Positions 3,315 to 62,998 of a stretch of DNA of 64,000 nt are shown here, in pieces. The notes under the pieces are model-generated. The model saw only the letters and a program-made list of their open reading frames with translations. It had not been told where the DNA came from and did not search any database. Made by a program: the position numbers and the translations under genes. Source of the DNA: an uncultured bacterium (GTDB lineage: Bacteria > Muiribacteriota > Ozemobacteria > Ozemobacterales > Ozemobacteraceae); NCBI GenBank assembly GCA_964483805.1, contig CAZADH010000002.1, forward strand, positions 1,163 to 65,162, read 5' to 3'. Every line of letters starts with the position of its first letter. The stretch's first letter is position 1.

Positions 3315-6300
3315 TCACACGACAACAGCAACCTCGTGTATTGCTTCACCCGCAAACTCGCCAGGAAGGCGCAATTCGGGGCGCGGCTCGCACGAGACCG
3401 AGGGGGCGACGACTGCCGTCGTCGGTCCATCGAGCATGATGCCGGTCGCGGTCGCCTGTTTGCTCGCGGCCTCGAGCAAAGCCGCGCGTTCGAGGGGCGG
3501 GCCGAGAACGGCGCGCGCCAGCCGGCCGGACTGACTGCCGACGAGGCCGACGACGGCGGCGCCGGATGCGATGCCGATGCCGGTCTTGATGGTGAACTGG
3601 CCGGCGCGACGGCGGCGACCGTTGAAAACGGTGAGGGCCGCGCGCATGGTGCGCGCGGCCTGCACGGCGCGCTGTTCGCGCCGGGCGTCGTCACGCCGGG
3701 CGTCGTCGCCTTCGACCCGGTCGACAGAGGAACAAGCGGTGGCCGTGGCGTGTGGCGATGGGGCATCCCCGGGGCGGTCCAGGAAAACGGCGAGTATGGC
3801 ATCGCCGATGAACTTGTCGATGGTGCCGCCCTGCTCGCGAATGCACCACTCCATGGCGGTGAAGTAGTCGTTGAGCATGGCGACGATCTCTTCGGGCGGG
3901 TACTGTTCGGACAGCGTGGTGAAGCCGCGAATGTCGGACGTCAGCACGGTGACATCGGCCAACTCGCCACCGGGCGCCAGGGCGGCATCTTCGTCGCGGC
4001 CGACGACCTGCAATACATCGTCGGACACGAAGCGGCTCAACTGCTCGCGTTCGCGCAATCCCTGGGCCATGCCGTTGAACACTTCGGCCAGGTGGCCGAA
4101 CTCGTCGTTCTGGGCGAGCACGAGGCGCCAGCGGTAGTCGCCACGTGCCGTCGCCCGCATCGCAGCGAGAAACGTCGGCAGCGGCCAGGTAAGCAGACTG
4201 GCGACACCGCCGATGACGGTCAGGGTGATGCAGGACAAGACGGCGAGCAGGCCAAAACCGAGCGACATCGCTCCACCCCAGCGTGCCGTTGCAGCGACCG
4301 GCGCCGACCAGGCGACACCCCGGTAGTTGGCTTCGACGAAGAAACGGGGGGCCAGGACATCGGGCCGGGGCGCGGTCGGGTCGGCCAGCAACGCGCCGAT
4401 GCGTTGTTCGAGGCGCCGCCGCGACAGGTGACGCGGCTCGGTGCCGTGCAGGGCCTCGATGAAATACCGTGTATGCCAACCCAGATGCACCTCGTCGAAA
4501 GCGAGCGGCCGGCTCATCGTCGAGAGAGTTTCGGGAAATCGCTCACACAGCTCGGGGATCTGCTTCAACGCACGCGCGCGCAACGCCCTGGTGAGGGCGC
4601 TAAGGTAACGCTGGTTGCATGCATCATTGCCGCCGATGAGAAAGGCCAGTCCGACCACGGGGCCCGCCCGCACACGATGTGCGTAGTGGGCGTTTGCCGC
4701 CATGGACGGCGGCCCGGAACGCAGTTTCGGGCAGTGCAAACGACCCGCCCGCGCGGAGCTACCGCAGTGCAAGGCGGCGTTGTTTTGGGGGCCTCGAAGG
4801 GTGCCGTTGCTCCGCGGTGCATCGGCGCCGTGTGCCGTCAAGAACCCGCGCTGAAGCCCTGCATCGGCTGTCGAGGGTCCTGGCCGAGGCTCCTGGAGAA
4901 TCGCGATGCCTTCCCACTGGTCGGTGTTTCCCAGCAGGCTGCGGTGCATGCGATTCGGCGCCGCCAGCATCTGGCCGTAGTAACTCATGTCGAGAAACTG
5001 CTCGGCAATGCTGCGCGCGAGAATCGTCTGCGTCTCGAGGCCCGTGGTTCCCGAGCGCGGCCGAAACACGCCGAGTTGGGTCATGGTTTCCTGGGCCATG
5101 GTGCGGGTGATCGTCGACATTTTCACGGCTTCGCTGCGCCCTTCTTCGCCATAGTCAGACCAGAACCACTCGCGACCATCGGCCGCGTAGAGGAACATCG
5201 AGCGGCACAACTCCTCGCGCTCGATGATCCGCCGCATGGCTGATTTGACCGCGGCGGTCGACGAGGCCATCGACCCGGTCGAGATCAGGACCGCAAGCCG
5301 TTCGTTCCACCGGCGCAACCGGGCGGCCCACTGGTGATTGGCAATGCTGAGCCCGCGGTCGATGCGTTCGAAAGTGCGCTGCGCCCGATCGCGCACCTGT
5401 TGCGGCACCACGGCCTGGCGGGCCTGCTCCCAGGCCACCGACATGGCGACGAGGCCGAGCACCGGCAACGCCAGGCCCAAACCGAAGGCCACACCCATCT
5501 TGGTGCGCAGGTTGAGCCCTGCGGGCAGGCCGAACCACACGAGACGCACCGAGATCACCGTAGCGAAGGCGAAATACAGCCATCCCAGGCACGACAGACC
5601 GGGCAACCAGTCATGCCAGGGATGACGCCAGAGGGCCCGGGGGGCGAACACCGCCAGAGCAAGCCGGGACGCAGCCGTGCGGGGCGAGCCATACGTTGTA
5701 TGACGATCGACGCGGCGAATGTCGCTGCGGAAGCGGGTCGGCAACCGCGAGTAGTAGACCATACCGGCCTTGGTATCGAAAAAACCGCAGTGCGTTCCCG
5801 CCGGTGCCCGCACCAGACCGCGGCGAAGCGGCGGGTTCGACGACCGCGCCGCCAGATTTGCCATTTGCCGGCTCCGATCGACGCGACCGCCATCGAGAAT
5901 CGCCACATACATGGCATCGAACTCCGCGTGGATGCGCCGACCTTTGGGAATCGAGGAAACCCACCCGGCAATGCCGTGCAGAACCCGCATCGGCCGGAAC
6001 GCACTCAGGAGCATCTGGTTCTCGGGGCGCATGCCGGTGATGCCGGCGCCGCGCCCGACCAGTTCCTCGAACAGGCGTTGGCCGTGAGCAAAGTAATGGT
6101 CCTCGGGATTGGCACCGGCCTTGTGCACGATGCTGCGTACATGCCACGGAACGGCAATCTCGCGCATGCGGCGAAGCACCGCTGCCGTGGCAACTCCCCT
6201 GGGCGCCACCTCCGGATTCCACCATGTCCAGGTCGTCTGTGGTTCGGCCGCCAAAAACCACAGCGCCACCACGGGCATGCCGGTATGACGCTCACACGCC

Positions 6301-6668: not shown

Positions 6669-9600
6669 GACGGCACTCCTGCCAGTTCGAACACCGAGAT
6701 GGCCTGGGCCTTGCCCTTCACCGCAATGGCCCCGAGTCCGGCGAGAGTGAAGCCCTCGTTGCAACCGGCCGCGGTCGCGGCATCGAGGACGATCCCGGTG
6801 GCAACCGCCCGACGGCTCTCGCTCTCGAGGCGGGCCGCGAGGTTCACGGTATCGCCGATGACGGTGTGATCGATGCGACGCAGGCGCGAACCGATGCGTC
6901 CCGAGATCACCACGCCGGTCGCCATGCCGATTCCCAGAGACAAGGGCGGATCATCGGGCGTCACGGCCCGACGGCGACGGTCGAGATCGGCCAATGCAGC
7001 CCGCATCGCCCACGCGGCCCGGGCCGCCCGCACGGCGCTATCGTCTTGCGGACCGGGGGAAAACACGGCCATCACCGCATCACCGATGTATTTGTCGATA
7101 CTGCCACCATTGCGGGTCACCGCCGCCTCGGCCAGCGGAAACCAAGCGTTGAGCAGGTCGATGATCCAGCCCGGCGACCGCCTGGCCAACAGACCCGAAA
7201 AATCACGCAGGTGGGCGAACAACACGGTGGCGGCGCACCGCTCGCCGCCGGGGGCCAGATCGGCCCCGGTGCCGGCCTGCACCGTCGAGAGAACCTCAGC
7301 GGAGACGAAACGGGTCAGGCGCAAACGTTCGCGCAATCCCCGGCACATGTTGTTGAACTCGCCGGCGAGCTGGGCGAACTCGTCACGCGTGTCGCAACGC
7401 AGCTCGACGTCGAGCAATCCCTCGGTCACCCGGGTTCCGCCCTGCGACAGAACCCCGATCGGCCCCACGAAAACCCGCTCGAGATAACGCACCAACACAT
7501 AAAGCAATACAACACAGTACAGCGCGAGAGCGAGCAGCAACAGACGCTGGTTCCACACCTGCACCGGGCTGTCGGGTTCGACCAGAGCGACCGCGACCCA
7601 GGGAACGCCGTCGAACGACTGGACCACACCTACACCGCCATCGGCCGCCGGCAGGACGACGGCGGCCCCGGCCCGCGCCTCGAGAAGGCCCTCACGCGCC
7701 ACCTCGGCCAAAGCCCCGTCGTGCCGGGCCGAGATCGGCCAACACTGCTGGGGCTCGAGCTGCGGGTGATCGGCATCGGTGATGCGAAAGAAAGCGATGC
7801 GATCACCCTGGCGACACTCGAGTTGCTCGGCAAACGGCGCGGCGCGACGCCGACGCGCGAAATAGTCGTCGGCCGATCGTTCGGTGCGCTGCAACGTGAA
7901 CAACTCGGCCACGGGCAACCGGTCGCGCCGCGAGTCGGGGAAAACAAGAAACTGCAAGACGCGGCAGTTCTTCAGGCCACTGAAGCCGGAATCGGCCGGC
8001 GCGCCGTCGTCCATCACCAGGGCGCGAACATCGCCCACCCCGATGTTCTCGGCAATCGCCCATCGCGACCGGGTCAGATACGACGGCGCCCCGGGGCGCC
8101 CAAGGAGTTGCGGCGTAAATATGCCGTATTCGGCCAGGCTGCGAATGGCAAACAACCGGCCGAACTCCCGCAACTGGTCGGCCGCCACCGGATCGAGCTG
8201 CACAGGGTCGGAAGCAGGCGCACGGACTGTCCATTCCTCGCCCGAGGCCGCGATCAGGTGCACGGCATCGAGACAAGCGGTCTGCTGCAGGCGCGCCAGT
8301 CGGGCCGCCACCCGCGACCGATCGCGCACGAGATCGGCCCCGAGCCGCTCACGCACACGCGAAATCGCGGCGGCATGAAAGTCGGCGTGCGCGGCCAGAT
8401 CGGTGCCGACCACACCGATCTTCTCGCGAACCTCGTTGAGTCGTCGATCGACGTCGAGTTGGCGCGCAAAGCCGTGCCACGCCACAGCCACCAACCAGAA
8501 GCCCACGATGGGAACGACGACGGCGAGGCCCGTCGCCACCGCGAGCTTGCCCCAGATCGACAACGGCAGACGCACATCGTGCCGGGCCAACCGCCACAGC
8601 AGCACCGCGATCGCCAGGGCACCCAGGCCGAGCGCAATTCTGACCCACGGCAGCAGCGGCCGCAGCGGATGCACGAGACTCGCCAACGGCCGCCACACCA
8701 GCATGACGGGCGGTCGCGATCGGGGCCCCGGTCGACCACCCGAAGTATCGGCCCAACGGGCGGTGGTGTCGCGGTGCAACGGCCAGGCAAGTGCGTAGAT
8801 GTGCCGCGAACGGACGAACCGGGGCGACATGGCGGCCACTCTGCGGGTCAGGCGCCAGTTGGCGCCGCGCCGGTGCCGGCCCAGCCACAATCCGGCCGGC
8901 AAATCGGCATCGCGCAGAATCGCCAGGTAGCCACCGACGATCGGCGCGTGCGGATGATCGGAGGCCGGCAGGAAGCGGGTGTAGATCCAGAGCGGTCCGC
9001 CCCCGAACTTGGGCGAATACATGCCGACCACGGCCCCCCGGGGACTGCGTGCCGACGCATACTCGCCCAGCATGCTGCGCAACAGGCGATCGGCCATGGC
9101 CGGCGTCACGCGCTGCGCCGCCGCGACCGCACCCGGATCGGCCCAGGCCTGTCGGGTGCCCAATCCACCCATGAACTGCAGGATCTGCCGCGCAGCTTTC
9201 TGCGACGGCCGATTCAGGGCGGTAAAATACTTTGTATTGCCATGCACGATGACGTCGGCACCATCGGAACCGGCGACAAACACCGCCAGAGGCTCGGTTC
9301 CGAGCCGTCTCGACAACGCCGGCACCAATCGCCGCGCCCAGTGTTGAGCCGGGATCGGTCCGGACTCCGACGCCGCGAAGTGCCAACTGCGCACCCGCTC
9401 CGGATCGGGCCAACCGACGTCCTGTTCGGCGCTGTGCAGCAGACCGCGCAAACCGGTGGCCGGCTCGAGGGCGGCTGCTTCACGACGGGCCTGCGCGACC
9501 ATCTCGCTCTGCACGGTCGCGAGCAGATCCTGTTCGACCCGACCGATGATCGAGACCACCGCACGTTCACCGACCACCAGCGGAACCACGAGGCCCAAGA

Positions 9601-11354: not shown

Positions 11355-12065
11355 ATGCCGGAACCGGTCCTGATCGAAATGGCACGACATCCCCACGCTG
11401 ATCTGCCTCTTGCCGACGTCTCGCTGCGCACCGCCGGGCGCAGCGGCAACGGCGCCGTACGTGCGGCCGGCACCGACGGTCTGGCCTTGCATGCCGCCCA
11501 ACGACTGCTCGTCGATCTGGGCCCCGATGTCGCCGAGCACTGTCAGCACGTGGCCCGGCTGTCACTGGCCCTGTTCGACGGTCTGCAGCCCTTGCACCGG
11601 CTCGATGAAGAAACCCGCGTCGAACTGGCGTGCGCCGCGTTGCTGCACGACATCGGCGTGGCGGTTGCTGCCAACCGCCATCACAAACACCGCCGCGACC
11701 TGATCATGCAGCGGTTCTGGGTCGTTCCCGAGGAGCGCCGCCGCCGCATCGCGTTGATCGCCCGGTATCATCGCAAGGCACTGCCGGACAAAAGACATAC
11801 ATTGTATGACATTCTCAGCAAAACCGAGCGGCACGCGGTCTGGACCGCTCTGGGCTGCCTGCGCATCGCCGACGGACTCGACCGCACCCACCGCGCCCTG
11901 GCGCGCGGAGTTCACGTGGCAATTCTGCCCAAGAGCCTCGAGATTCGGGTCGATCTGCCGCTGGCCGGCCGCGAAGAACTGGCCGTTGCCAGAATGAAGG
12001 CCGACGGCCTGGCCACGCATTTCAAGCGCAGCGTGACGATCACGCACGCCGACCGCAACACGTAG
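11355..12065 (+). CDS. HD domain protein (Ppx/GppA C-terminal-like HD)
   Basis: LLHDIGVAV HD motif and RYHRK. GGGAGAGAA SD before the ATG. Directly downstream of the CHAD gene. Confidence 0.7.
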   Translation: MPEPVLIEMARHPHADLPLADVSLRTAGRSGNGAVRAAGTDGLALHAAQRLLVDLGPDVAEHCQHVARLSLALFDGLQPLHRLDEETRVELACAALLHDIGVAVAANRHHKHRRDLIMQRFWVVPEERRRRIALIARYHRKALPDKRHTLYDILSKTERHAVWTALGCLRIADGLDRTHRALARGVHVAILPKSLEIRVDLPLAGREELAVARMKADGLATHFKRSVTITHADRNT

Positions 12066-12573: not shown

Positions 12574-13622
12574 ACCGCTTCACCACCACCGGGGTTCTGA
12601 CTGTCCGCGCTTCCAGCGGGGTTGGCGGTGCTTTGGGCGGCCGTGGCCGTTTCGCGATCGATGCGCACGAACCCGCCCATCGTCTTCAACTGCAGGGTGG
12701 TGGCCGGGTTGCCGTCGCCCACGAGCACCGTCGCCTTGCGGGGCATCAGCCCGCGATGGTAGGTGATGCGCCCGACCTCGGGCCCGGCCTCGATGGCGCC
12801 GCCCATGGTCACCGCGCGAATCTCACCATTGGCCCCCGGCGCCACGGCCACGCGAATGTTGCCGCCCATGGTGTGGGCGCGACACTCCCCTTGCCAATCT
12901 GGCGCCAGGCCGATCTCGAGGTTGCCGCCCATCGTCTTGGCCTCGAAGGTCTTGCTCATGTTGCGCAGATGCAGGTTCCCGCCCATCGTGCGGAGTTTGA
13001 CCGCCGTCGGCACGCCGACGACATAGATCGAACCGGCCTGCATGGTTGCCCGCACGCGGGCCACCGAGGGCGGCACTTTAACGGTCAGGCTCTCATCGTC
13101 GGTGACGATGTGAATGCGGCGCCGGCCTTTGAATACTTTGTATGCACGCGGATGTCCGGCCACGATCTCGCATTGGTCACCGACGGCACCCAGCAACTCG
13201 AGCCGGCCGGCGTCGGTGATGCCGGGGCGACGCCGCACGCGGATGGTCAGGTCGAACCCGTTCTCGATGGTGAGTCGGCCCTCGGTCAGTCGCAACTCTT
13301 CGAGGTCGTTCTCGTCTTCGCGGTCGCCATCGGCATCGCCGTCTTCATTGAACCCGATCGTCGTCGGAATGTTGGCCAGCGAGTCGTGAATGATGTCACT
13401 GACCATCGGGCCGATCCCCGAGAGCATATCGTTGAGCGCCGAGAACGGCCCGAACCCGGGCCGACCGCCGCGATTCGGGTCGGCGCCCGGCAGCGGACCA
13501 CCGGTGTCGGCGGTGCGCTTCTGTTCGCCCTCGTTGAGGGCCTTGAGCAGGCGTTCGGCCTCATCGACGGTAATGACCTTGTCGGCCAGCATCTTCAGGA
13601 TCTCACGGCGTTCGTCACTCAT
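12570..13622 (-). CDS. DUF4097-like beta-repeat protein (LiaG-like putative adhesin fold) with SHOCT-like N-terminus
   Basis: Internal repeats TMGGNLHL / TMGGNLEI / TMGGNIRV / TMGGAIEA / TMGGFVRI. N-terminal ILKMLADKVITVDEAERLLKAL motif. AAGGGAG SD 6 nt before ATG 13622. Confidence 0.65.
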   Translation of the reverse strand: MSDERREILKMLADKVITVDEAERLLKALNEGEQKRTADTGGPLPGADPNRGGRPGFGPFSALNDMLSGIGPMVSDIIHDSLANIPTTIGFNEDGDADGDREDENDLEELRLTEGRLTIENGFDLTIRVRRRPGITDAGRLELLGAVGDQCEIVAGHPRAYKVFKGRRRIHIVTDDESLTVKVPPSVARVRATMQAGSIYVVGVPTAVKLRTMGGNLHLRNMSKTFEAKTMGGNLEIGLAPDWQGECRAHTMGGNIRVAVAPGANGEIRAVTMGGAIEAGPEVGRITYHRGLMPRKATVLVGDGNPATTLQLKTMGGFVRIDRETATAAQSTANPAGSADSQNPGGGEAV

Positions 13623-18671: not shown

Positions 18672-20573
18672 TTATTGCAGCCACGGGCCATCATTGCCGA
18701 TCTTGCCCGGGCCGTCGAGAACCCAGGCGCCAATTGAATTCGCCCTCACCGTGAAGGTCAGTCGTAACGACGCTGTGGCCACCGTCTGGGTGGCCCCGGT
18801 GACGGCATCGACGTAGTTGCCGCTGCGCACATTGGTCACGGTCATGGTCTGATCGGCGCCGACACCGAGCCCCACCACCACATAGCTGTCGGAGATGTTC
18901 TCCGGCGTGCGCATCTGACGCACGAACGACATGCCGTTCGACCAGACGCGCCCGTTGACCAGTTGGCCGCGTTGCAGGGCCGGCACAGCCCGGCGGATCT
19001 GATTGAGCCGTTGGATATGGCGATACAACGGGTGGCTCTGCGTGGTCGGCAGCGACGCGGGCGTCAGATTGCCCCCGAAGTAGGCGCGCCCCGTGACCGC
19101 CAATACTTCGGCACCGGTGCCGATCGTTACCGGCGCCCCTTTCATGAAGGCGATCTCTTCGCCCTGGAACAGGCACGGGATGCCGCGCACCGTCCACATC
19201 AGGTTGTAGGCCAGCGCGGCGTTGGCGTCGGGGCCGTTGAAGCGATGAAATACATCGTATGTCGGTCCGACGCGGGCATTCTGAAAGAAGGTGATCAGCG
19301 TGGTCGGGTTGCCGTAGATCCAGTCGGCGCTCAGAATCGGGGCCAACCCGGTGAACGTGGCCACGGCGAGCGTGTCGCGCAACCCGACGAACAGCGGATA
19401 ATCGAAGACCGCCATGCGTGAATCCGGGCCCGAGTCGGGCTCGGCCGGGTCGGCGGCGACGCGGGTGTAATACCACGGCCGCACCCGGGCCAACGACTGC
19501 GGACTGCCCGCATCCCCCCACCCGGAGCCCAGATTGGCGACCTCGGCACAGAAGAACAGGTGCGGCGAATCACCGCGCCAATCATCGACCATGCGATGCA
19601 GATCGGTGCGATCGACATGGCGGGCGTGTTCGACGCAGATCCCGTCGACACCCCAGTGTGCATAGGTCCGCACCGCTTCACGGAAGTAGGCCCGCACCGT
19701 CATGTTCTCGGTGGCCAGATCGATCGAGTCGGCATCCTGGTGTTTACCTTGTATTGCATCGGGGTCGCTCCAGTCGGCGTCGGTCATCCAACCGTTGCGG
19801 TGATACCAGTTGCGGTCGAGATCGGCCTCGTCGGTGCCGAAGAACCGATCGGCGCGATAATCCATTTTCGGTACGGTGGTGCCGGTCTTGGGGTCGAGCA
19901 GCGGTTCGCCGCCGAAGGGGTCGCGCCGCACCCGTTCCCAGAACCAGTCGGGCGCCTTCGGGTTGTCGTTGTCGTCACGAAACGCCGATTTGTAGTTGCC
20001 GAGCACGATCTCGTACGGCCACGGCACGACCATCGCTTTCGCCCGGTAGTACTTGTGCGGCAGGCGGTTGATCCAGAACTGGTGCCGGATCCCGTAGTTG
20101 CTGGTGTGATTGACCACCACCGACTGGATCACCTTCATGCCCCGCTCATGGGCCGCGCGGATGAAATCGAGGTAGGTGCCACCCAGCGACTCGAGCCGCG
20201 GATCGACCTTCAGCCAGTCGTAGCCGAAGGTACCGTGGTAATCGAGCGCACCGCGGTTCTCGATGGGTGGCGAGATGAGAATCGCCGAGAACCCCAGGTC
20301 GCGAACGTAGTCGAGCGCCGCGATCAGCCCGGCGAAATCGCCCCGCCAATGAGGATCTCCGCGATCGATGCGTTCGCGCCCGTAAAAATTGTTCGTGGCG
20401 TCGCCGTCGTTGAAGCGCGTCAGCAATACGCGGTAAATCGTCTCACCGCGGAAGTCAGGGTCGACGGGAATCTCGGCCGCCGCAACAAACGCGTTGCCCC
20501 ATGCCGCCGCGAGAACGACCGAGAGCAATAGCGCCCGGATGGCACGCAGACACGCAGCCCGGCAGTTCGTCAT
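18672..20573 (-). CDS. alpha-amylase family glycoside hydrolase (GH13), secreted
   Basis: GH13 regions (FGYDWLKVDP, GMKVIQSVVVNHTS, catalytic-region context). Signal peptide MTNCRAACLRAIRALLLSVVLAAAWG. Start taken at ATG 20573 with AAAGGA SD 7 nt upstream. Confidence 0.85.
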   Translation of the reverse strand: MTNCRAACLRAIRALLLSVVLAAAWGNAFVAAAEIPVDPDFRGETIYRVLLTRFNDGDATNNFYGRERIDRGDPHWRGDFAGLIAALDYVRDLGFSAILISPPIENRGALDYHGTFGYDWLKVDPRLESLGGTYLDFIRAAHERGMKVIQSVVVNHTSNYGIRHQFWINRLPHKYYRAKAMVVPWPYEIVLGNYKSAFRDDNDNPKAPDWFWERVRRDPFGGEPLLDPKTGTTVPKMDYRADRFFGTDEADLDRNWYHRNGWMTDADWSDPDAIQGKHQDADSIDLATENMTVRAYFREAVRTYAHWGVDGICVEHARHVDRTDLHRMVDDWRGDSPHLFFCAEVANLGSGWGDAGSPQSLARVRPWYYTRVAADPAEPDSGPDSRMAVFDYPLFVGLRDTLAVATFTGLAPILSADWIYGNPTTLITFFQNARVGPTYDVFHRFNGPDANAALAYNLMWTVRGIPCLFQGEEIAFMKGAPVTIGTGAEVLAVTGRAYFGGNLTPASLPTTQSHPLYRHIQRLNQIRRAVPALQRGQLVNGRVWSNGMSFVRQMRTPENISDSYVVVGLGVGADQTMTVTNVRSGNYVDAVTGATQTVATASLRLTFTVRANSIGAWVLDGPGKIGNDGPWLQ

Positions 20574-23790: not shown

Positions 23791-23981
23791 CGAGGAGACC
23801 TCCGACCGAGAATGAAATACATCGTATTGCCTCATCAAGGCAACCGCGGGAAAACGCAATGAGACGCACTCGAGGTCTCAGACAATATCACAACCGGGGG
23901 CACGGTACAAGACCGGCGCACCGCATGCGGCGGGTCCGGCGGGCTGGGCGCCCTGTACTGTTGTGGTGTCTGCGACCGGCC

Positions 23982-39769: not shown

Positions 39770-39894
39770 ATGAAGCAATACATTTTCCATACAATGGCAA
39801 CACGTCTTCGGTCATTGATTCGTCAGGTCGAAGCAATCCTCCCCGTTCAATAAACACGAAATCGCCGACAACATTCCTCGTCCCCCTTGGCAGC

Positions 39895-48279: not shown

Positions 48280-51211
48280 CCCCACCCCGTTGACCGGCGA
48301 CGCCCACAGTTCTGCAGCCCCCCCCAAGGCGTTGCCCCCGTCTGTTCCAGACGACGGCGCGGGACACCGGTCACGCTGGCTGACCGTGCTCATCGGCTGG
48401 ACCATCGTCTACTGCTCGCTCGTGATCACGCCGGCGGTGATGTGCTATATTGTATTTACATCTGCCGCCGCCACTCGCTTCAATAGCCGGCTTGACGACG
48501 TGCGGCGCGACCTGGCGGTGCGCGGCGATCGTCTCGTGGCGCGCTGTGAGCGCGAGAAGGTCGTGGTGGGTCTCGTCGAGGGCCTGAACCGTCGCGGCAT
48601 CGCCGGTTTCCTGGCCAGGGCCCAGACCTGGCAGCGCCATCACCCGGGAGCGATGCGTTGGATCGCCTGGGATCGCACGGGAACGCTGCTCAAGATGCCC
48701 GACGAGTTGTCGGTGAACGGCAAACGTGCCTGGCAGGAGGTCGTACGCAAGATCTGGCATCCCGATGCCGGCAGCCGCACGACGGTGGCCGAGCGCGCCC
48801 AAGTCGTCGCGGGTTTGCAGCGGTTCCTTGGTCGGCGTCCGGTGGCCGGCACGCTGGTCGAGTCACCCCGGCGCCTGATCTCGACGGTCATCCTCGATCG
48901 GCCCTGTTGGTTCGTCTGGGCGCACCACCGGCCAGCACCCCACACGCAACCCGCACCAGTCGGCGATCCGCTCGGGGGGATTCTGCTGCAGGTCTTTCCT
49001 GAGAAACTGCCGGCCCAGTTCTGGATCGATCCGGTCTTGCGCCTGGCCGCGCGCGACCATGCCGACCGCCAGCCTCCGTTCGTCATGTTCGATCTGTGCG
49101 AACCGTGGCGCAATGTGGTGTCACCGTCGTTGGCCCGTCTTTCGCAGGGTTTCGTGCCCACGTTGCGCCGACGTTTTCTCGAGCGCAGCAGCGAACTGAT
49201 CCAGGTCGGTTCCTACATTGCTGTCCCGGTTTCGCTCGACGCGGCGGGCGACACCCCGCAGCGGCTGCTGGTGCTCGCCGACATCGCCGACCTGTACCTG
49301 GAGCGAGCCACCGCCGAGCGCCGATCCGGCCACCTCTTGCTGCTCTTCCTCGTCGCCACAGCAGCCGGTGGAGCATACTGGGGGCGAAGCGGCGGTCACG
49401 GGGTGTCGCTGCGGTTGCGGGTGGTGCTGTTGTTTGGCGCCGCCGTGTTGTTGCCCACGCTCGGCCTGGTCGTCGGCGGCGCCCAGCTCGTCCGGTGGGA
49501 GGACCACAGCGAACGGGCCGTCGCCATCGACATGCTGCAACAGTCGGCGCTGCGGCTGAACGCTCGCGGCTACATGTATTTCGAAGAATACGGCGAACGG
49601 GTCCGGGAGCGCCTGGTCGCCCGCATTACCGGGCTCACCCGGGAACAGGATCTGCTCGCCGCCCTGCGCACGGCCATGCGCCAGGGCCTGGGGTCGAGTT
49701 TCTTCGTTTCCAGACTCGATGGGGGATTGTGGACATCGGGAGGCCGCCGCCTTGCCTCGGGCCCTCTCGAAATGCTGCGTTTCGCCATGCGTCGCGAACA
49801 CAACGAGGACGTCAATCTGCTCGCCCAGAGCGTCGTTTCGCCGCCGGGGCAGAAAGCCGACGTGCCATGGGTGCCCCTGACCGCAACCGCGGGAGCGGTG
49901 GTGTCTCGCATCAACGCCGTGCGCATGCTGCGCCTGGGCGATGCGGAATACGCGGTATTGAAGATGGCCGTCACCATCAACTTCCGCACCCGCCTGGTCA
50001 TCGTGGTATTCGATCCCCACGACCTCGAACTCGATCTGGCGGCCCGTGCCAGTCTGAGTATGCGCCGGCGCGAACTGCGCTCGCCAACCGCGCTCGCGCC
50101 GCGGGTCCATTTCGTGGCGGCAACACCGATCGGCGGCTGTTCCTGGCTCAACGCCTCGCTCGGTCGCCAACCGGCGGTCGCCCGGGCCGTTGCCCTCGAA
50201 AACGAGACGGTGGGCCTCATCGACTGGGCCGGTGAGACTCAACTGTTCTTCGTGCCGGCCCGCGAGACGCGGGCGGTGTTGCGCCCCATCTGGTTGTTGC
50301 CCGACCGCGGCATCCGCGCACGCATGGAGCGGCGGTGGCAGTTGATCGTGCGCACCGCAGCGTTGACTTCGGTGGGCGCGATTGCGCTGGCGTTGGCGCT
50401 CGCGGCCGGCGTTCTCGGGCCGGTTCGCCGCCTCGACCAGGCCGTCGCCGCCGTCCGCGCCGGCGATCTGCACTCCCGGGTCGACGGCGTCACCCGCGAC
50501 GAGATGGGGATCCTGGCCATGGCCTTCAACGACATGGTCGGCCGGTTGCGCGAACGGGAGCGGATGAAGGCCTACGTCTCGGCCACGGTCCTGGCAGCCG
50601 TCCGCGACGACACCGTGTCGCGCGGCGCGAGTGCACGTTCGGCACGCGTCACCGTGCTGTTCTCGCACATCGCCGCTTTTTCCCAGATCGCCCGCACCTG
50701 GACCCCGGAGGCTGTGTTTTCCATGCTCAACAGCTACTTCGCCGGCGTCGAACCGGTCGTGCGTGAGCAGGGCGGCGACATCGACAAGTTCATCGGTGAC
50801 GCGGTCATGGCCAGGTTTTTTGGTGACGGTCAGGAACGGCAGGCGGTCAATGCCGCACTGGCAATGCGCCGGCACTTGAATACATACAACGTAAGTCGCC
50901 AACAGGCCGGGTTGCCCGCAATCAACATCGGGATCGGGATCAACACAGGGGAGGTCATGCTCGGCGATGTCGGCAGCCGCAACCGCAAAGACCTGACCGT
51001 CATCGGCGACGCCGTCAACCTTGCCGCCCGCCTCGAGGTAGTGGCGCATCAGGGCACGCACACGCGCATCGTCGTCTCGGCAGAAACGGCCGGACAGCTC
51101 GAACCGTCGCTGCGACTGGTCGAGTTGGCGGTCACCACGGTCAAGGGCAAAGACCGCCCCGTGCAGGTATTCGAAGTGGTCGGGCCGACCGACGCGCAGG
51201 TGCCCCAGTGA
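48242..51211 (+). CDS. membrane sensor class III nucleotidyl cyclase (cyc3); His replaces first metal-binding Asp
   Basis: HAMP (FNDMVGRLRERERMKAY) followed by VLFSHIAAFSQ ... IDKFIGDAVMA ... TVIGDAVNLAARLE. Start uncertain: the track GTG at 48242 overlaps the HEAT gene by 38 nt, and alternative TTG starts lie at 48290 and 48332. Confidence 0.8.
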   Translation: MRSRRVTSNPTVDPTPLTGDAHSSAAPPKALPPSVPDDGAGHRSRWLTVLIGWTIVYCSLVITPAVMCYIVFTSAAATRFNSRLDDVRRDLAVRGDRLVARCEREKVVVGLVEGLNRRGIAGFLARAQTWQRHHPGAMRWIAWDRTGTLLKMPDELSVNGKRAWQEVVRKIWHPDAGSRTTVAERAQVVAGLQRFLGRRPVAGTLVESPRRLISTVILDRPCWFVWAHHRPAPHTQPAPVGDPLGGILLQVFPEKLPAQFWIDPVLRLAARDHADRQPPFVMFDLCEPWRNVVSPSLARLSQGFVPTLRRRFLERSSELIQVGSYIAVPVSLDAAGDTPQRLLVLADIADLYLERATAERRSGHLLLLFLVATAAGGAYWGRSGGHGVSLRLRVVLLFGAAVLLPTLGLVVGGAQLVRWEDHSERAVAIDMLQQSALRLNARGYMYFEEYGERVRERLVARITGLTREQDLLAALRTAMRQGLGSSFFVSRLDGGLWTSGGRRLASGPLEMLRFAMRREHNEDVNLLAQSVVSPPGQKADVPWVPLTATAGAVVSRINAVRMLRLGDAEYAVLKMAVTINFRTRLVIVVFDPHDLELDLAARASLSMRRRELRSPTALAPRVHFVAATPIGGCSWLNASLGRQPAVARAVALENETVGLIDWAGETQLFFVPARETRAVLRPIWLLPDRGIRARMERRWQLIVRTAALTSVGAIALALALAAGVLGPVRRLDQAVAAVRAGDLHSRVDGVTRDEMGILAMAFNDMVGRLRERERMKAYVSATVLAAVRDDTVSRGASARSARVTVLFSHIAAFSQIARTWTPEAVFSMLNSYFAGVEPVVREQGGDIDKFIGDAVMARFFGDGQERQAVNAALAMRRHLNTYNVSRQQAGLPAINIGIGINTGEVMLGDVGSRNRKDLTVIGDAVNLAARLEVVAHQGTHTRIVVSAETAGQLEPSLRLVELAVTTVKGKDRPVQVFEVVGPTDAQVPQ

Positions 51212-54051
51212 CCCGCAACGACAAGACCGAACCGGCAAGAGTGCCGCTCTGGCAATGGTTTGTCTTGTATCTGCTCGTTGTTGCCCTGCCGTCGTGGATG
51301 GTCGCCGACTATTTCCGGGCGTTGTTTGCCGAACAGGCTGAGACCCGCAGCCAGATGGCCGCAGCCAAGCTTTCGGTCGATGCGGCGGCCGCCGCGCACT
51401 TCTTCCGCTCGTCGTTTCTGCTCGAGTCGCTCCTGACCCGCTCTGCCTGGCCCGAGGCGCGTTGGCCGCAGTTTGTCGAGGCGCTCGAACGTCGCTACCC
51501 AGGTGCCTTTCGCTGGATTCTCTACGACCGATCGCAGCAGATTATCCCCATCGTCCCGACGGCACGCCTGCCCGGCGGCCCGGGGTTGTGGCATCGGGTC
51601 GTGTCGAGTTACGCCATCGCTTCCATGTCGTTCTACCGGTTGCTCGACGCCCGCCTTGGCACCGATCCGCTTCTGGGCGAAGTGCAGCGCGCGCTCGGCC
51701 CCGGTTTTCGGTTCGAGAACCTTCTCTCGACTTCCAGGGGCGTGCTGTACGGCCCCTGGGAAGGCGAACCTGCCGTCATGGCCTGGTGGCAGGATGGTCG
51801 CGATGCGGCTGACAACATCGTGGATCGCGGCCGCTTGCGCGGGTTTTTCGCGGTCATGCGCCCCGGGCGCCTGCCGCCGTTGCTGCCGATGCGCCTCATC
51901 GTCAGGGGCCACGCCGCGGGCATGCGGCGATCGACCTCATCGTTGGTGGCGATCGACCCCGCCGACCCCCGCCGCTTCTACACCCATCCCACTGTTCCGC
52001 GCGAACCGGCCCTGGGCGAACGGCTCTGGACCGCCCATCGCCACCGCACCGCCGACGTTTTCCGCGTCGATCATTGGCTCGCCACCGCCGTGCCCATCCG
52101 CGAGGCCATGGCCGGCAGGGTTTTTCTCCTGCACGACCTGGCCCCCGGGGAACGGCAGTATCAATGGCAATACAACATATTGATGGTCATCCTGTTCGCC
52201 GTGCAAGCCATCGGCGTGCTGTTGCTGCTCTCCTGCTGGCGCCGCGGGGGGCTCGAACTCGGCCTGCGTTGGCGCATCATGAGTGCCCTCTCGCTGGCCA
52301 TGTTGCTGCCGCTCGGCGGCCTGTATCAACTGGGCGAGCGGATGGTGGCGCGCGAGTATCAGGTCCGCCGCGAACAACTGGCGGCCGGTTTGAGCCGGGA
52401 CCTGGCCTTGGTCATGCCACGGTATCGGGACTTCAGCAGTCGGTATGGCGCCGCTCTGCTGGCCTCACTGACACGCGCTGTGGCCGGCCCGTTGTCGGAG
52501 CGGGAGATCAGCACCCGTTTGCAGCGGTTCGTCAGCCGACCGGCCCACCAGGTTTCCGATTTTTACCTGAGCGACGCCCGAGGACGACTGGCCCGCAGCG
52601 GCCGCGAACAGTCAGACCGGCGGTTCAAGACCATTGCCCAGATCATGTTGTCGGGCGTCTTGCGCGACAATGGCGGCCCCACCGAGTCTTCGGCTTTCAA
52701 CGAGAGCATGCTCGAAACCGTGGCCGAGGTCGCCGAGAAAGACCGCCGCATGGACCAGTCGCTGCTGCGGGTAAACGAGTGGGGCCTGCACATGTTCATG
52801 CGCGACTCGCGCTACATCATTGCCCTGCTGCCCCGGGTCGACGGCACCATGCGATCGTTGCTCGTGCCGGTGAATCCGGCACTGGTGAAGGTTCGCTTTG
52901 CCAATCGCGAGTTCGTGCGCGGACTGACGCCGGAGTTGCAGGCCGTCGGGCTGAGCCGGGCGAACTTCACCTCGGACCAGTGGGGGCACATTCCCGCCGT
53001 GCCGGCCTTCTGGCAGAACGGCGAGATTCGCCAGGCCCTCGAAGATCGGCGGACGCAGCGCGCCGGCGAGTTCACGCTCAACAACGGCCGCTTCCTCTAC
53101 CAGACCGGCGCGCGGACCGCGTTGTTTCCTTACATTTTCGTGGGCGTGGCCCCCCTCGACCCGGTCGCGGCCGAGGTCAATCGACACGCATGGGCGTTTC
53201 GGGGTGCGGCCCTCTTTGTCACCGGCCTGGTGGGCGTTCTCGGCTGGTTATTGGCCGCCGGCCTGCTCGCGCCGATCCGTCGCCTCGAAGTAGCGGTGCG
53301 CCAGGTCGCCGCGGGCAACCTCGACGTCGAGGTGGCCGTGGTGGGCCGTGACGAGATTGGTCGCCTGGCCGAGAATTTCAACGACATGTTCCGCGGTCTG
53401 CGCGAGCGCGAGCGCATGCAGGCCTATGTGTCTCCGGCTGTCCTCGAGGCGGTGCGCGACGACGCCACCGCGGCGGGCCAGCAGGCGCGAACCTGCGAGG
53501 CGACGGTGTTCGTTGCCGATATCCGCTCGTTTACGACCCTGTCGGAGAAACATGGACCGCAAGCGATGTTCGCGATGCTCAACGAGTACATGACGGGGGT
53601 CGAGGCGTTGCTTCGCGAGCATGGCGGACGCATCGACAAGTTCATCGGGGACGCCGTCCTGGCGGTGTTTCTCGACCCAGGTCGTGCGGGCGCCCTCGAG
53701 GCGGTGCGGGCAGCATGGGCCGTCACCCGGTTCGTCGCCGAGTTCAGCACCCGCCGGCAACGGGCCGGGTTGTTCGGGGTGGGCGTCGGGGTCGGCATCA
53801 CCACCGGCCGCGTCCTGGTGGGCACGGTCGGCAGCGCAACCCGCAAAGATCTGGCCGTGATTGGTGACGAGGTCGAGCGGGCCGCGCAACTCGAAGCCGC
53901 CTCGAAACAGGGGCGTCACTCGCGCATCATTCTCTCGCCGGCCACCCACGACCTGGTCAAGGATGTAACTCGTTGTATTTCTCTTGCTCCCTCTCACGCC
54001 CGCGATGCCGACCTCGTCGCTTTCGAAGTGGTCGAAGCGCCAAGCGCTTGA
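51208..54051 (+). CDS. membrane sensor class III nucleotidyl cyclase (cyc4); Asps intact, Asn/Arg replaced
   Basis: GTG 51208 overlaps the TGA of cyc3 (GTGA). HAMP (FNDMFRGLRERERMQAY), then VFVADIRSFTTLSE ... IDKFIGDAVLAVF ... VIGDEVERAAQLEAA. Confidence 0.8.
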   Translation: MTRNDKTEPARVPLWQWFVLYLLVVALPSWMVADYFRALFAEQAETRSQMAAAKLSVDAAAAAHFFRSSFLLESLLTRSAWPEARWPQFVEALERRYPGAFRWILYDRSQQIIPIVPTARLPGGPGLWHRVVSSYAIASMSFYRLLDARLGTDPLLGEVQRALGPGFRFENLLSTSRGVLYGPWEGEPAVMAWWQDGRDAADNIVDRGRLRGFFAVMRPGRLPPLLPMRLIVRGHAAGMRRSTSSLVAIDPADPRRFYTHPTVPREPALGERLWTAHRHRTADVFRVDHWLATAVPIREAMAGRVFLLHDLAPGERQYQWQYNILMVILFAVQAIGVLLLLSCWRRGGLELGLRWRIMSALSLAMLLPLGGLYQLGERMVAREYQVRREQLAAGLSRDLALVMPRYRDFSSRYGAALLASLTRAVAGPLSEREISTRLQRFVSRPAHQVSDFYLSDARGRLARSGREQSDRRFKTIAQIMLSGVLRDNGGPTESSAFNESMLETVAEVAEKDRRMDQSLLRVNEWGLHMFMRDSRYIIALLPRVDGTMRSLLVPVNPALVKVRFANREFVRGLTPELQAVGLSRANFTSDQWGHIPAVPAFWQNGEIRQALEDRRTQRAGEFTLNNGRFLYQTGARTALFPYIFVGVAPLDPVAAEVNRHAWAFRGAALFVTGLVGVLGWLLAAGLLAPIRRLEVAVRQVAAGNLDVEVAVVGRDEIGRLAENFNDMFRGLRERERMQAYVSPAVLEAVRDDATAAGQQARTCEATVFVADIRSFTTLSEKHGPQAMFAMLNEYMTGVEALLREHGGRIDKFIGDAVLAVFLDPGRAGALEAVRAAWAVTRFVAEFSTRRQRAGLFGVGVGVGITTGRVLVGTVGSATRKDLAVIGDEVERAAQLEAASKQGRHSRIILSPATHDLVKDVTRCISLAPSHARDADLVAFEVVEAPSA

Positions 54052-57004: not shown

Positions 57005-58102
57005 TCACAACCGCCCCCGCTGCATGTTGAATGAATCGAGGCGGTAGTGAGGGACAAACAGCTCTTTGAAGGTCGCCATGGCAAACCCATCGGTCATGCT
57101 GGCCAGATGATCGACGACCGTTCGCCAGACCGGGGTGTCCGGCGCCACCGGGTGATGCAACCGGGTCAGCAGGCGTTCGGGTTTGCTCATAAAATACTGG
57201 GCCATCTGCCGCAACAACACCCGGCTCTTTTCGATCTCGTCTTCGATTTCGTGGCGGGTGTAGACCTTCTCGTAGAGAAATGCCCGCAACTCCTCGGCGG
57301 CATCGGCCACCGGCTTGCTCAAGGCAATTGCCGGCTTGCCCCAGCTTTCGAGAATGATGTCTTTGACCATGCCGTGAATACGTTGTGAGTTGCGCTCGCC
57401 CAGAAGCGTCACCGGGCCTGCCGGCAAGTCGCTCAGACTGATCAAACCCGCCCGCACCGCATCGTCGATATCGTGATTGATATAGGCCACGAGGTCGGCC
57501 AGGCGGACCACCTGGGCCTCGAGCGTCAACGGGGCTTCGGCAGCGCCGCTGAGCAGCAACGGCCCGGACCGCCCCTTGCTGTGCTTCAGAATGCCGTCGA
57601 CCACCTCGGCGGTCAGGTTGAGGCCCGCACCGTTCTTTTCGAGGTGCCGCACCACGCGCACGCTGTGGACGGCGTGGTGAAACCCTTCGGGCGAAAGCTC
57701 ACCCAGCACCTGCTCACCAGCATGCCCGAACGGGGTGTGCCCCAGATCGTGCCCGAAGGCGATGGCCTCGGTGAGATCTTCGTTGAGCCGCAGCCCACGG
57801 GCAATCGTGCGCGCGATCTGGGCCACCTCGAGGGTGTGCGTCAGGCGGGTGCGAAAGTGATCGTTGCGTGGAGCCAGGAACACCTGGGTCTTGTGCTTCA
57901 ACCGCCGAAACGCCTCGCTGTGCAGGATCCGATCGCGATCGCGTTGAAAACAGGTGCGATAGAAGCAATCGCGCTCCGGCCGGTCGCGCCCGCGCGACGC
58001 CTGGCTCTTGCAGGCGAACGGCGACAGAAACGCCGTTTCCTGGTCCTCGAGCATACGTCGTATGACGTCGCCTTCGGGTCGCTTCACTTCGTGTTCGCTC
58101 AT
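57005..58102 (-). CDS. dGTP triphosphohydrolase-like HD domain protein
   Basis: HD motifs RLTHTLEVAQIAR, FGHDLGHTPFGH and ADLVAYINHDIDD. Confidence 0.8.
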   Translation of the reverse strand: MSEHEVKRPEGDVIRRMLEDQETAFLSPFACKSQASRGRDRPERDCFYRTCFQRDRDRILHSEAFRRLKHKTQVFLAPRNDHFRTRLTHTLEVAQIARTIARGLRLNEDLTEAIAFGHDLGHTPFGHAGEQVLGELSPEGFHHAVHSVRVVRHLEKNGAGLNLTAEVVDGILKHSKGRSGPLLLSGAAEAPLTLEAQVVRLADLVAYINHDIDDAVRAGLISLSDLPAGPVTLLGERNSQRIHGMVKDIILESWGKPAIALSKPVADAAEELRAFLYEKVYTRHEIEDEIEKSRVLLRQMAQYFMSKPERLLTRLHHPVAPDTPVWRTVVDHLASMTDGFAMATFKELFVPHYRLDSFNMQRGRL

Positions 58103-59465: not shown

Positions 59466-59528
59466 GCTTCGGCTCCTTGCTTCGCAGTCGACATGGTCAG
59501 CCCACAGGGAGGGCGGCGGGAACAAGAG

Positions 59529-59552
59529 CAATACAGAATATTACAGAATCAG
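59529..59552. repeat. CAATACAGAATATTACAGAATCAG element overlapping the small-ORF stop codon
   Basis: Near-identical to 35002-35025. Lies in the 83-bp gap between the small ORF and thymidine phosphorylase. Confidence 0.45.
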
Positions 59553-61007: not shown

Positions 61008-62998
61008 TCACGCGCGGACGCATCATTCTTATTGCTTTTGTATTGCTGTGGTGGCTGGCCTCGACCTGGACCGCCCACCAGGGCTGGCTGAACCGCACCG
61101 ACGAGATGCTCGAAGACATGCAGTGGCGCCTGCGCTGGGCGTTGGTGCCCGATCGAACGCCAAGCCAGGTGGTCACGCTGCTGATCACCCGCAACGATGT
61201 CGTGCAGTTGTCGTCGGCACACAGTTTCGAGTGGCCGCTCAACCGACGGTGGTTCGGGCGCGTCGTCGAGGTCCTGCAGCGGTGCCGGGCCCGGGCCGTC
61301 GGCTTCGACATGGCTTTTCTGCCCTCCACAAAGACCGATGGCGACCCGTTGTTCGCGGCTGCACTCGCATCGTGGCCCCGCCGGGTGGTGCTCGGCACCG
61401 AACTGCAGGGAACCCTGGCCGGTTCAGCGAATGATGAAGATGACGACGAGGAAGGCTACGGGCAGGGCCTGCGACCCACCCCGGTCAAGACCGAGTTCGC
61501 CTCGCCGGCCTGGGGGTTGGGCGCGTTCAATTTCCTCGAGAACCGCGAGGGCACCGAGATTCCGCGGGTGATGCCCCTCCACTTCCCGGTGAACGGCCGG
61601 TGCTTCCCCGGCCTGGCGCTGGCGACCTGGATGGCAGGCCAAGACCGATCGGTGGCATTGACTGCCGCATCCGGCGCTGTCCAGTTGGGGCCGACCCTCC
61701 GTTTTCCGGCCGAGGAGCTCATCCCCGACGGGCGAACGTTCTTCGTCGACCGTGTGCTGAGTCCGATTTTCCCGGAGAATCCGCATTTGCGCTTCCATGC
61801 CCTGTTCGCCTTTCACGATGAACGGGTCACCTTCGCTGCCTACAAAGACGCGGTCTCGTTTGCCCAGCTCGCGCTGTGCAACCCGAACGATGGCCCGGCA
61901 GTTGCTTCGCTGGCCCGCATTCTTGCCGACAAATATGTCTTGATCGGGGTCGGCGAGAACACCCTGGGCGACGTGATCCAGATGCCCAACCAGCCGCGCC
62001 GGGTTGCGGGGGTGATGCTGCACGCCGCCATGCTCGACGGCCTGACCCGCCACGAGGGCTTCCTGTCTCGTTGTCGATCGGCGGGGTGGCGCACCACCGT
62101 CGCCGGCATCGCCCTGGCCCTGTCGCTGTTCGTCCTGTTCACCCAGGCCCGTTTCTCACCGCTCCGCGGCCTCCTCACCGCGCTGGGCGGTTTCATCACC
62201 GTCGTCGTCACACTGTTCGCCCTGTTCTGTGGCGGGGTGCTGCTGCCGTGGTCGGTCATTCCGGTGACGTTCATCGGCGTGCTCCCCGCATGCTATTTCT
62301 ACGGGTACCTGGTCGAAGGTCGCGAGAAAGCGCAGATCAAAGACATCTTCAAGAAACAGGTGTCGCCCGAGATCGTCGATGAGCTGCTGACGCGTGCCGA
62401 CGAGATCATGGCCGCCCGTCGCCAGGAGATCTCGGTAGGTTTCATCGATGTTTGCGGCTTTACCAGTTTCTCTGAATCCCATTCACCCGAACGCGTACTC
62501 GTGCAACTTAATCACTACTTCAGTCGTATCATTCCGGACCTCATGCAACGACGGGTAACGCTCGACAAACTGATTGGCGACGCGCTCATGATCACGACCG
62601 GCGTTCCGTTGCCCGACCCGGCGCATGCGGTACGGTTGGTCGAGGCGGCCGCGGCGATTCGCAAGATGGTCGCGCAGATCAACACGAATCTTCCGCCTGG
62701 CTTCGAACCGTTTACCGTCAGTTGTGGTATTAACTCTGGCGACGCCATTGTCGGCAATGTGGGTTCGCGGGAACGCATGGAGTACACCGTCATCGGCGAT
62801 GTGGTGAATCTGGCTGCCCGCCTGCAAGGGGTGGCAAAGAGTCAGGAGATCGTCGTGGGGCCAAGAACCTACGAGATGACGCGTGATCGGTTCCAGTATC
62901 GCCCGTTACCCCCTCTCACGGTGAAGGGCAAATCCGAACCGGTGCAGGCCTACATGCTCCTCGAACCCGCAGACATCCAGCATTCGCAAACCCTGTGA
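60968..62998 (+). CDS. CHASE2 sensor domain class III nucleotidyl cyclase (canonical catalytic residues)
   Basis: N-terminal TM then CHASE2 region (VTLLITRNDVVQLSS..WPLNRRWFGRVVEVL..AVGFDMAFL). TM cluster. Cyclase GFIDVCGFT ... LIGDALMI ... YTVIGDVVNLAARLQG. ATG 60968 has a GAGGT SD; an alternative GTG at 61004 overlaps the upstream stop (GTGA). Confidence 0.85.
   Translation: MGLYPTEQSGRLVITRGRIILIAFVLLWWLASTWTAHQGWLNRTDEMLEDMQWRLRWALVPDRTPSQVVTLLITRNDVVQLSSAHSFEWPLNRRWFGRVVEVLQRCRARAVGFDMAFLPSTKTDGDPLFAAALASWPRRVVLGTELQGTLAGSANDEDDDEEGYGQGLRPTPVKTEFASPAWGLGAFNFLENREGTEIPRVMPLHFPVNGRCFPGLALATWMAGQDRSVALTAASGAVQLGPTLRFPAEELIPDGRTFFVDRVLSPIFPENPHLRFHALFAFHDERVTFAAYKDAVSFAQLALCNPNDGPAVASLARILADKYVLIGVGENTLGDVIQMPNQPRRVAGVMLHAAMLDGLTRHEGFLSRCRSAGWRTTVAGIALALSLFVLFTQARFSPLRGLLTALGGFITVVVTLFALFCGGVLLPWSVIPVTFIGVLPACYFYGYLVEGREKAQIKDIFKKQVSPEIVDELLTRADEIMAARRQEISVGFIDVCGFTSFSESHSPERVLVQLNHYFSRIIPDLMQRRVTLDKLIGDALMITTGVPLPDPAHAVRLVEAAAAIRKMVAQINTNLPPGFEPFTVSCGINSGDAIVGNVGSRERMEYTVIGDVVNLAARLQGVAKSQEIVVGPRTYEMTRDRFQYRPLPPLTVKGKSEPVQAYMLLEPADIQHSQTL

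Follow-up and report, generated by a model that had tools for sequence, protein, structure and literature searches.

We find that a degenerate, two-fold symmetric 17-base-pair (bp) DNA motif is strongly over-represented along a 64,000-nucleotide (nt) stretch of DNA from an uncultured bacterium of the family Ozemobacteraceae (assembly GCA_964483805.1, contig CAZADH010000002.1, positions 1,163 to 65,162; hereafter "the window"). The consensus, 5'-G-M-A-A-T-A-C-(A-A-N)-G-T-A-T-T-K-C-3', has a 7-3-7 layout, and its GC content is 33% in a window of 63.8% GC. A sequence-only reading of the same DNA, which had put window GC at about 67%, had singled out the 9-mer GCAATACAA as the over-represented unit. 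That excess is real, but the reading missed the partner arm: its 9-mer covers a single arm of the symmetric 17-bp site together with the A/T spacer. We tentatively propose, at a probability of roughly one in three, that the motif is an iterated target for an abundant DNA-binding protein that acts as a homodimer, is sequence-specific and has a chromosome-wide role.

Across the window, GCAATACAA or its complement occurs in nine exact copies. The expected number is 0.07 in dinucleotide shuffles, 0.67 under an order-3 Markov model and 0.79 under a codon-aware null, which permutes synonymous codons gene by gene and thereby preserves each protein sequence and each gene's codon usage. None of 500 codon shuffles reached nine copies, and no run among 100-200 dinucleotide or Markov simulations equalled the observed counts. 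The sequence-only reading had named codon shuffling and an order-3 Markov model as controls for a genome-wide count, and within the window its claim withstands both. Depending on the null, the excess of the 9-mer is 11- to 130-fold. All nine copies first listed exist, with three coordinates off by 1-2 nt (19748, 24102 and 61036), as do all of the listed one-off variants, among them the pair at 30673/30681, with GCAATACAT beginning at 39775 and not at 39776. In total, 21 one-off variants of the 9-mer accompany the nine exact copies.

Shorter words from the same arm show the same pattern. The 8-mer CAATACAA occurs 14 times against 1.7-3.2 expected, preceded by G in nine copies, by T in five and by A or C in none. 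AATACAA occurs 23 times against 4.7-5.3 expected, and its complement TTGTATT tops all 7-mers under the order-3 model (23 versus 4.7). Among the 192 hexamers containing a single G or C, with a median of 5 copies, the two most frequent are AATACA (44 copies) and ATACAA/TTGTAT (35 copies), in agreement with the hexamer excess claimed earlier. Words that differ from AATACAA at one position are also enriched, including AATACAT (13 versus 3.2), AAGACAA (7 versus 2.3), CATACAA (7 versus 3.4) and GATACAA. The excess is discernible from hexamer length upward. We considered AATAC as the unit and rejected it, as the 5-mer is no outlier among words of equal composition; its roughly 4-fold excess over dinucleotide shuffles therefore reflects a weakness of that null.

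Because several 9-mers carry GTATT three bases downstream, we tested inverted arms directly. On the plus strand, ATAC occurs 94 times and GTAT 110 times, yet the combination ATAC-N3-GTAT occurs in ten exact copies against about 0.16 expected, and against 0.7 under the codon-aware null (14- to 60-fold excess). When the spacer between ATAC and GTAT was varied from 0 to 40, only spacer 3 was enriched, and every other spacer gave at most two copies. In an unbiased scan of all 4-mers in direct or inverted orientation at spacers of 0-15, ATAC-N3-GTAT ranked first (p ~3e-15), and the second-ranked pair, AATA-N5-TATT, describes the same sites. All ten exact cores lie inside genes.

Matrices anchored on AATACA show K at position -2, C or A at -1, and enrichment of G-T-A-T-T exactly at +8 to +12, indicating that single-arm sites tend to bear a partial second arm. 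Conversely, G stands at position -3 of ATAC in 13 of the 20 arms of the ten exact dyads. Together, the anchored matrices and this conserved G show that the 9-mers and the dyads form one family. We scored dyads by their matches over the 14 specified consensus positions. At least 10 matches are found at 39 sites (14.2 expected under the order-3 Markov model, 17.0 under the codon-aware null), at least 11 at 16 sites (1.7 and 4.6), and at least 12 at seven sites (0.18 and 1.4). Such graded scores, like the enriched one-off words, represent a degeneracy typical of protein-binding sites.

Two further observations concern the composition of individual dyads. Sites 9224-9243 and 30673-30692, which lie in unrelated genes, have 17 specified bases in common (GCAATAC-N3-GTATTTTACC). 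The second-arm variant TAAAATAC/TAAATAC is itself enriched, with TAAATAC found seven times against 1.0 expected.

After merging, about 28 strong sites extend from 3.3 to 61 kb, or one per 2.1 kb (~0.45 per kb); exact 9-mers alone have a density of 0.14 per kb. The sites reach 14 of the 16 4-kb bins and about 25 unrelated genes. Twenty-four of the 28 lie in genes and four between genes, where about 1.6 would be expected given that 5.6% of the window is non-coding; this excess is not significant. Site number does not correlate with local GC in 4-kb bins (rho 0.06), and the 28 sites show no clear promoter preference. The arms fall on both strands (five plus and four minus for the 9-mer, nine plus and five minus for the 8-mer), with seven sense and five antisense to transcription. 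GC skew has a single sign throughout the window, so that the balanced arms argue against any Chi- or KOPS-like polarity: Chi and KOPS/SRS are likewise short words over-represented inside genes, but they are strongly skewed to the leading strand, whereas this motif is unskewed. The sequence-only reading had raised strand skew and periodic spacing as checks. We found no skew within the 64 kb, and over the short distances that the window spans the sites are spaced no more regularly than at random (coefficient of variation of site spacing 0.83, p 0.21).

The exact dyads use the three reading frames in a ratio of 4:3:3, at relative gene positions of 0.04-0.71, and encode unrelated peptides ([H/N]-T-x-Y, Y-x-V and I-[R/Q]-x-[I/M]). 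Both the strand counts and this use of all frames bear out the earlier claim that the word occurs in either orientation and in unrelated peptides. Seven of the 23 AATACAA copies read h-V-L (xTT GTA TTG), in hydrophobic runs that permit synonymous spelling. The view that the motif is spelled with rare codons is largely borne out: GTA, ATA and ACA supply 4%, 2% and 6% of the codons for Val, Ile and Thr, respectively, whereas TTG and CAA, at 20% of Leu codons and 29% of Gln codons, are not rare. In nadA, the site falls where the protein sequence differs from one homologue to another, and reads AAT ACA where relatives of similar GC content have AAC AGC. Since the excess survives the codon-aware null and appears in every frame and in unrelated peptides, neither protein sequence nor codon usage accounts for it, and we agree with the sequence-only reading that the signal lies at the level of DNA.

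We also considered and rejected several repeat-based candidates. A longer repeat or a miniature inverted-repeat transposable element (MITE) does not account for the sites, as the only long repeats in the window reflect paralogy of cyclase domains and are free of the motif. Nor do the sites behave as repetitive extragenic palindrome (REP)- or MITE-type interspersed repeats: no repeat family holds them, and most are intragenic. The motif gave no Rfam match, and an RNA family was rejected. Dyads 5691 and 9227 lie at similar offsets in paralogous genes; common descent was rejected because the two proteins align with a 164-residue offset, and in general the sites in paralogues are not at homologous positions.

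Table 1. Motif sites in the window (scores out of 14 are dyad matches to the consensus)
Feature	Position	Strand	Context
Exact GCAATACAA arm	7504..7512	+	Antisense in cyclase gene; sense GTT GTA TTG CTT (VVLL)
Dyad AAAATACTTTGTATTGC, 12/14	9224..9240	.	Cyclase gene 6665-10303; exact 9-mer 9232-9240 (-); exact ATAC-N3-GTAT 9227-9237
Exact GCAATACAA arm	19749..19757	-	Alpha-amylase-family gene, GCA ATA CAA = AIQ; 17-mer at 19741 = 10/14
Exact GCAATACAA arm	24101..24109	-	nadA, CGC AAT ACA ATC
Exact GCAATACAA arm	26352..26360	+	Antisense, ABC exporter gene, CTT GTA TTG CTC = LVLL; 17-mer 11/14
Exact GCAATACAA arm	27752..27760	+	Antisense, second ABC exporter gene, CTT GTA TTG CAA
Exact GCAATACAA arm	41692..41700	+	Gene of 2305-aa TPR protein, GCA ATA CAA
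Dyad GCAATACAACATATTGA, 12/14, exact 9-mer arm (+)	52167..52183	.	Cyclase gene 51208-54051
Exact GCAATACAA arm	61038..61046	-	Antisense, near 5' end of CHASE2-cyclase gene, TTT GTA TTG CTG
TCAATACAA arm variant	17164..17172	+	SpoIIE-phosphatase gene
Dyad GCAAGACTTTGTATTGA, 12/14	22047..22063	.	Holds TCAATACAA on minus strand (22055)
TCAATACAATATATTACAAATCAG, dyad 11/14	35001..35024	+	Intergenic; between intrinsic-terminator-like hairpin and TGA stop of gene 35021-35689
TCAATACAA arm variant	41322..41330	+	TPR protein gene
TCAATACAA	58143..58151	+	Intergenic; 7 nt past thymidine-phosphorylase stop, upstream of HD-domain gene
GCAATACAGAATATTACAGAATCA, dyad 12/14, holds GCAATACAG	59528..59551	+	Intergenic; between stop of open reading frame (ORF) 59549-59740 and thymidine-phosphorylase gene
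Exact ATAC-N3-GTAT core	4464..4474	.	Cyclase gene 3315-6764; 17-mer 11/14
Exact ATAC-N3-GTAT core	5691..5701	.	Cyclase gene 3315-6764; 17-mer 11/14
Exact ATAC-N3-GTAT core	11797..11807	.	Ppx/GppA-domain gene
Exact ATAC-N3-GTAT core	13133..13143	.	Gene 12570-13622
Exact ATAC-N3-GTAT core	19250..19260	.	Alpha-amylase-family gene; 17-mer 11/14
GAAATACATCGTATTGC, 13/14, window's best dyad	23814..23830	.	Near 5' end of ORF 22889-23869
Dyad GCAATACGTTGTATTTT, 12/14	30673..30689	.	HEAT-repeat gene
Dyad GGAATACGCGGTATTGA, 12/14	49945..49961	.	Cyclase gene 48242-51211
Exact ATAC-N3-GTAT core	58053..58063	.	HD-domain gene, 49 nt inside annotated start
GCAATACATTTTCCATACAA, holds GCAATACAT	39775..39794	+	Intergenic; 6 nt past TAA stop, ~100 nt upstream of TPR protein gene

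The intergenic sites have features of their own. Read on the minus strand, three of them (35001-35024, 59528-59551 and 58143-58160) begin directly after a TGA stop codon. Sites 35001-35024 and 59528-59551 have the composite TGATT(C)TGTAATAT(A/T)(T/C)TGTATTG, in which two direct TGTAAT/TGTATT units lie about 10 bp apart. This composite may represent a separate element, located at 3' ends or between cistrons, that uses the core of the motif.

The strict spacing of the arms, their two-fold symmetry and a graded degeneracy resembling that of a position weight matrix point to a homodimeric DNA-binding protein as the reader of the motif. Moreover, since the sites ignore genes, strands and frames and run against a GC-rich codon bias, a chromosome-wide role is likelier than control of promoters. 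We therefore favor a model in which we infer dimeric protein binding, extension of the motif to the whole genome, and a role at that scale. Each monomer would read one GMAATAC(AA) arm; binding would be strong where two arms lie 10 bp apart, centre to centre, and weak at a lone arm. The sites are housed in rare synonymous codons and variable protein segments, and are thus maintained, or repeatedly recreated, at the DNA level. The protein itself would be nucleoid-associated or "chromosome-marking", rather than a regulator of individual promoters.

Several points weigh against this model. The evidence comes from one 64-kb window, and we found no cognate DNA-binding protein or methyltransferase among its genes. 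A convincing partner is missing from about two thirds of strong 9-mer arms, and the unit could instead be an asymmetric 9-mer to which the dyads are secondary. The window also contains no perfect 17-mer; this follows from the one-base overlap of two full 9-mer arms, whose letters conflict (AA versus TT), as does the spacer nTT in half of the dyads. Two neighbor words, AATCCAA and AATGCAA, are absent where the codon-aware null predicts 2.4 and 2.3 copies, respectively (combined P ~0.01 before correcting for seven positions). Taken as AATSCAA, with none against 4.7 expected, they may be weakly depleted, which would fit an origin by conversion or repair. Finally, the motif is 10-100 times denser here than nucleoid-occlusion sites, partition sites and the like. 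In common with the motif as we read it, the sites of Noc (NBS), SlmA (SBS), MatP (matS) and ParB (parS) are palindromes, 12-16 bp long, read by dimers, mostly intragenic and in the service of the chromosome. Those sites number in the tens per genome, whereas the motif would number hundreds to thousands if the window is representative, and it has no sequence similarity to NBS, SBS, matS or parS.

The main rival to a protein-bound chromosomal site, which we judge unlikely, is that the motif marks self DNA during uptake or during recombination linked to transformation. The machinery involved would favor DNA bearing the motif, and rounds of uptake and recombination would then spread it along the chromosome and into genes. 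The DNA uptake sequences (DUS) of Neisseriaceae and the uptake signal sequences (USS) of Pasteurellaceae resemble the motif: they, too, are words of 9 to 12 nt that far exceed expectation, occur in either orientation and in every frame, are lineage-specific and depart from the composition of the genome. The motif shows these hallmarks of USS, DUS and the cyanobacterial palindrome HIP1: its excess is large on both strands and in all frames, it is accommodated in synonymous or tolerated codons, it contrasts in composition with its surroundings, and distant relatives and unrelated genomes are without it. DUS and USS, however, are asymmetric, nearly invariant and found at about one per kb, and DUS often form terminator hairpins. 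The motif is instead dyad-symmetric with a fixed 3-bp spacer, a strictness inside genes that is foreign to USS and DUS. With the densities given above it is sparser than they are, and with nine exact against 21 one-off copies it lacks their invariant core and is far more degenerate. The sequence-only reading had suggested looking for inverted pairs near terminators; none of the sites forms a terminator, and only one, at 35001, adjoins a hairpin, without forming it. The 64-kb window contains no competence genes. Overall, dyad symmetry and graded degeneracy are more readily reconciled with a dimeric binding protein than with a classical DUS or USS.

HIP1 (Highly Iterated Palindrome 1, GCGATCGC) bears on the uptake explanation, as this palindrome is reported to aid transformation and has been suggested to be an uptake sequence (10.1101/2024.09.10.611283, 10.64898/2026.06.24.733823). 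PMC5861425 describes HIP1 as 15- to 300-fold over-represented in and between genes and apparently selected, gives no peptide, RNA or regulatory role as having been found for it, and proposes a part in nucleoid structure. A 2026 preprint proposes a part in DNA uptake and transformation, and states that HIP1 contains the targets of two methyltransferases, DmtA and DmtC (10.64898/2026.06.24.733823). HIP1-type palindromes are distributed periodically on a scale of 10-90 kb. Like HIP1, the motif is a palindromic word over-represented across the chromosomal sequence, within and between genes, and explained by neither peptides nor codons. HIP1, however, is a GC-rich 8-mer, exact and without interruption, and its copies can outnumber genes, whereas the motif is an AT-rich dyad of 17 bp with a gap and degenerate positions. 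HIP1 is also cyanobacterial, while the motif occurs in a GC-rich genome from outside the cyanobacteria, at about one site per 2 kb and often as a single arm. By this comparison the motif is closest in kind to HIP1, and is a member of neither the HIP1 nor the uptake-sequence family.

Less probable than an uptake signal is an origin of the motif, with no function, as a by-product of enzymatic bias, for example from a methyltransferase coupled to short-patch mismatch repair, or from conversion of near-matches. Targets of type II methyltransferases typically have dyad symmetry, and the seeming loss of AATCCAA and AATGCAA, both altered at position 4, is what directional conversion would yield. This depletion is weak, however, and AATACAT, AAGACAA, CATACAA and GATACAA are enriched instead. 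The repair-driven bias of Vsr/Dcm in E. coli gives excesses far below 10- to 60-fold, and no Vsr-like gene accompanies the missing methyltransferase in the window. For HIP1, PMC5861425 reports conservation analyses that favoured selection over biased repair. If the word were a restriction-modification target it should be avoided, and over-representation is the opposite of that prediction.

We consider it improbable that the motif is an ordinary transcription-factor operator, such as a 5-N3-5 palindrome bound by a LexA-like or Lrp/AsnC-like dimer, with functional intergenic sites and incidental intragenic copies. Its xxAC-N3-GTxx layout may resemble that of certain SOS boxes and of the abcde-WWW-edcba sites, 13 bp long, to which Lrp/AsnC proteins bind. 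Four intergenic sites in so small a non-coding share would suit an operator, as would the clustering of sites 58053, 58143 and 59528 around two nucleotide-metabolism genes. Against this, the intergenic excess falls short of significance, sites are not concentrated at promoters, and the 24 intragenic sites hold no preferred position in their genes; incidental copies, moreover, would lack a 10- to 60-fold excess achieved in rare codons against mutational and codon bias. Least probable is a local or technical artefact arising from chance, codon usage, paralogous repeats or an odd, recently transferred segment. The confinement of the data to a single window, and the presence there of five paralogous cyclase genes, speak for it, and a "local island" version keeps a small probability. 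The artefact is otherwise largely refuted, with chance, codon usage and paralogy excluded: no codon-aware shuffle, dinucleotide or Markov simulation reaches the observed counts, and the sites are spread over many genes and bins at non-homologous positions in paralogues, whose long repeats do not contain the motif.

Beyond the window, we looked for the motif in other sequences and in the literature. AATACAA has zero copies in the loci of distant relatives (64-67% GC), and nineteen loci from other phyla show no motif excess. A metagenome scan for GCAATACNNNGTATTTTACC, which has 17 specified bases and occurs twice in the window, gave at least 120 matches; the first 120 are all single and mostly low-GC chance occurrences, with no enriched high-GC contig among them. 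A viral scan for GCAATACAANGTATTGC gave 43 single chance matches and no enrichment, and a literature search for the word and the dyad returned only primers and an unrelated methylation motif. As these relatives and other scanned sequences show no excess, the motif is lineage-specific as far as is visible. By protein comparison the source lineage is very isolated. The best match to NadA among 5.8 billion proteins, from Candidatus Ozemobacter sibiricus (Riflebacteria), has 56% identity, and a NadA search of genome contigs gave at most 51% identity. A search with one cyclase of 947 aa returned two remote matches besides itself, and no relative beyond the catalytic domain.

The window looks like ordinary chromosome. 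Its genes include nadA, two ABC exporters, a methyl-accepting chemotaxis protein, a SpoIIE phosphatase, the 2305-aa TPR protein, thymidine phosphorylase and a Uma2-family protein. Five large class III adenylate/guanylate cyclase genes, HAMP- or CHASE2-linked, lie at 3315-10303, 48242-54051 and 60968-62998, with two of these groups arranged as tandem pairs. Together with the chemotaxis protein, the phosphatase, a STAS protein and a GAF protein, the cyclases make the region unusually dense in signaling genes. Positions 595-3049 encode the Uma2-family putative endonuclease and an AAA-ATPase/PD-(D/E)XK_9 protein, and the first 3 kb, with a lower GC content of 59.6%, may be acquired DNA. The first 3.3 kb contain zero arms or dyad cores, against about 1.5 sites expected.

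Other sequence features of the window lie apart from the motif. Between the convergent genes 11355-12065 and 12112-12573, positions 12048-12103 form a loop-less 28-nt inverted repeat, 96% complementary, which probably serves as a terminator hairpin in both directions. The small minus-strand ORF 59549-59740 encodes a Cys-rich protein of 63 aa (…CYDCEAYDRCY…) with no Pfam match; it lies immediately upstream of the thymidine-phosphorylase gene, and a motif site follows it directly. Over the whole window, TCGA (735 versus 454, z ~21) and CTCGAG (78 versus 29) lie far above the codon-aware null, as do the 8-bp palindromes CCTCGAGG (10 versus 2.8) and GCTCGAGC (11 versus 3.5); these excesses probably reflect codon-pair context (NTC before GAN).

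Few words are known to be iterated throughout a genome, among them USS/DUS, Chi and HIP1, and every one of these has brought to light a process at the scale of the chromosome. The present value of our finding is limited, as it concerns 64 kb of one uncultured genome. The dyad geometry nonetheless provides a concrete probe (GCAATACAAAGTATTGC) with which to fish out the cognate protein. If our reading is true, the motif could also serve as a practical signature for binning members of this lineage and for spotting foreign DNA. HIP1 is unexplained after three decades, and a second, unrelated iterated palindrome in another phylum would then provide an independent case. Our tentative proposal is that a chromosome-wide iterated dyad may have arisen independently in this deep lineage, as an equivalent of HIP1 that is AT-rich and gapped and has a dedicated dimeric reader, and that the dyad would be selected for nucleoid organisation or for recognition of self DNA in uptake or recombination.

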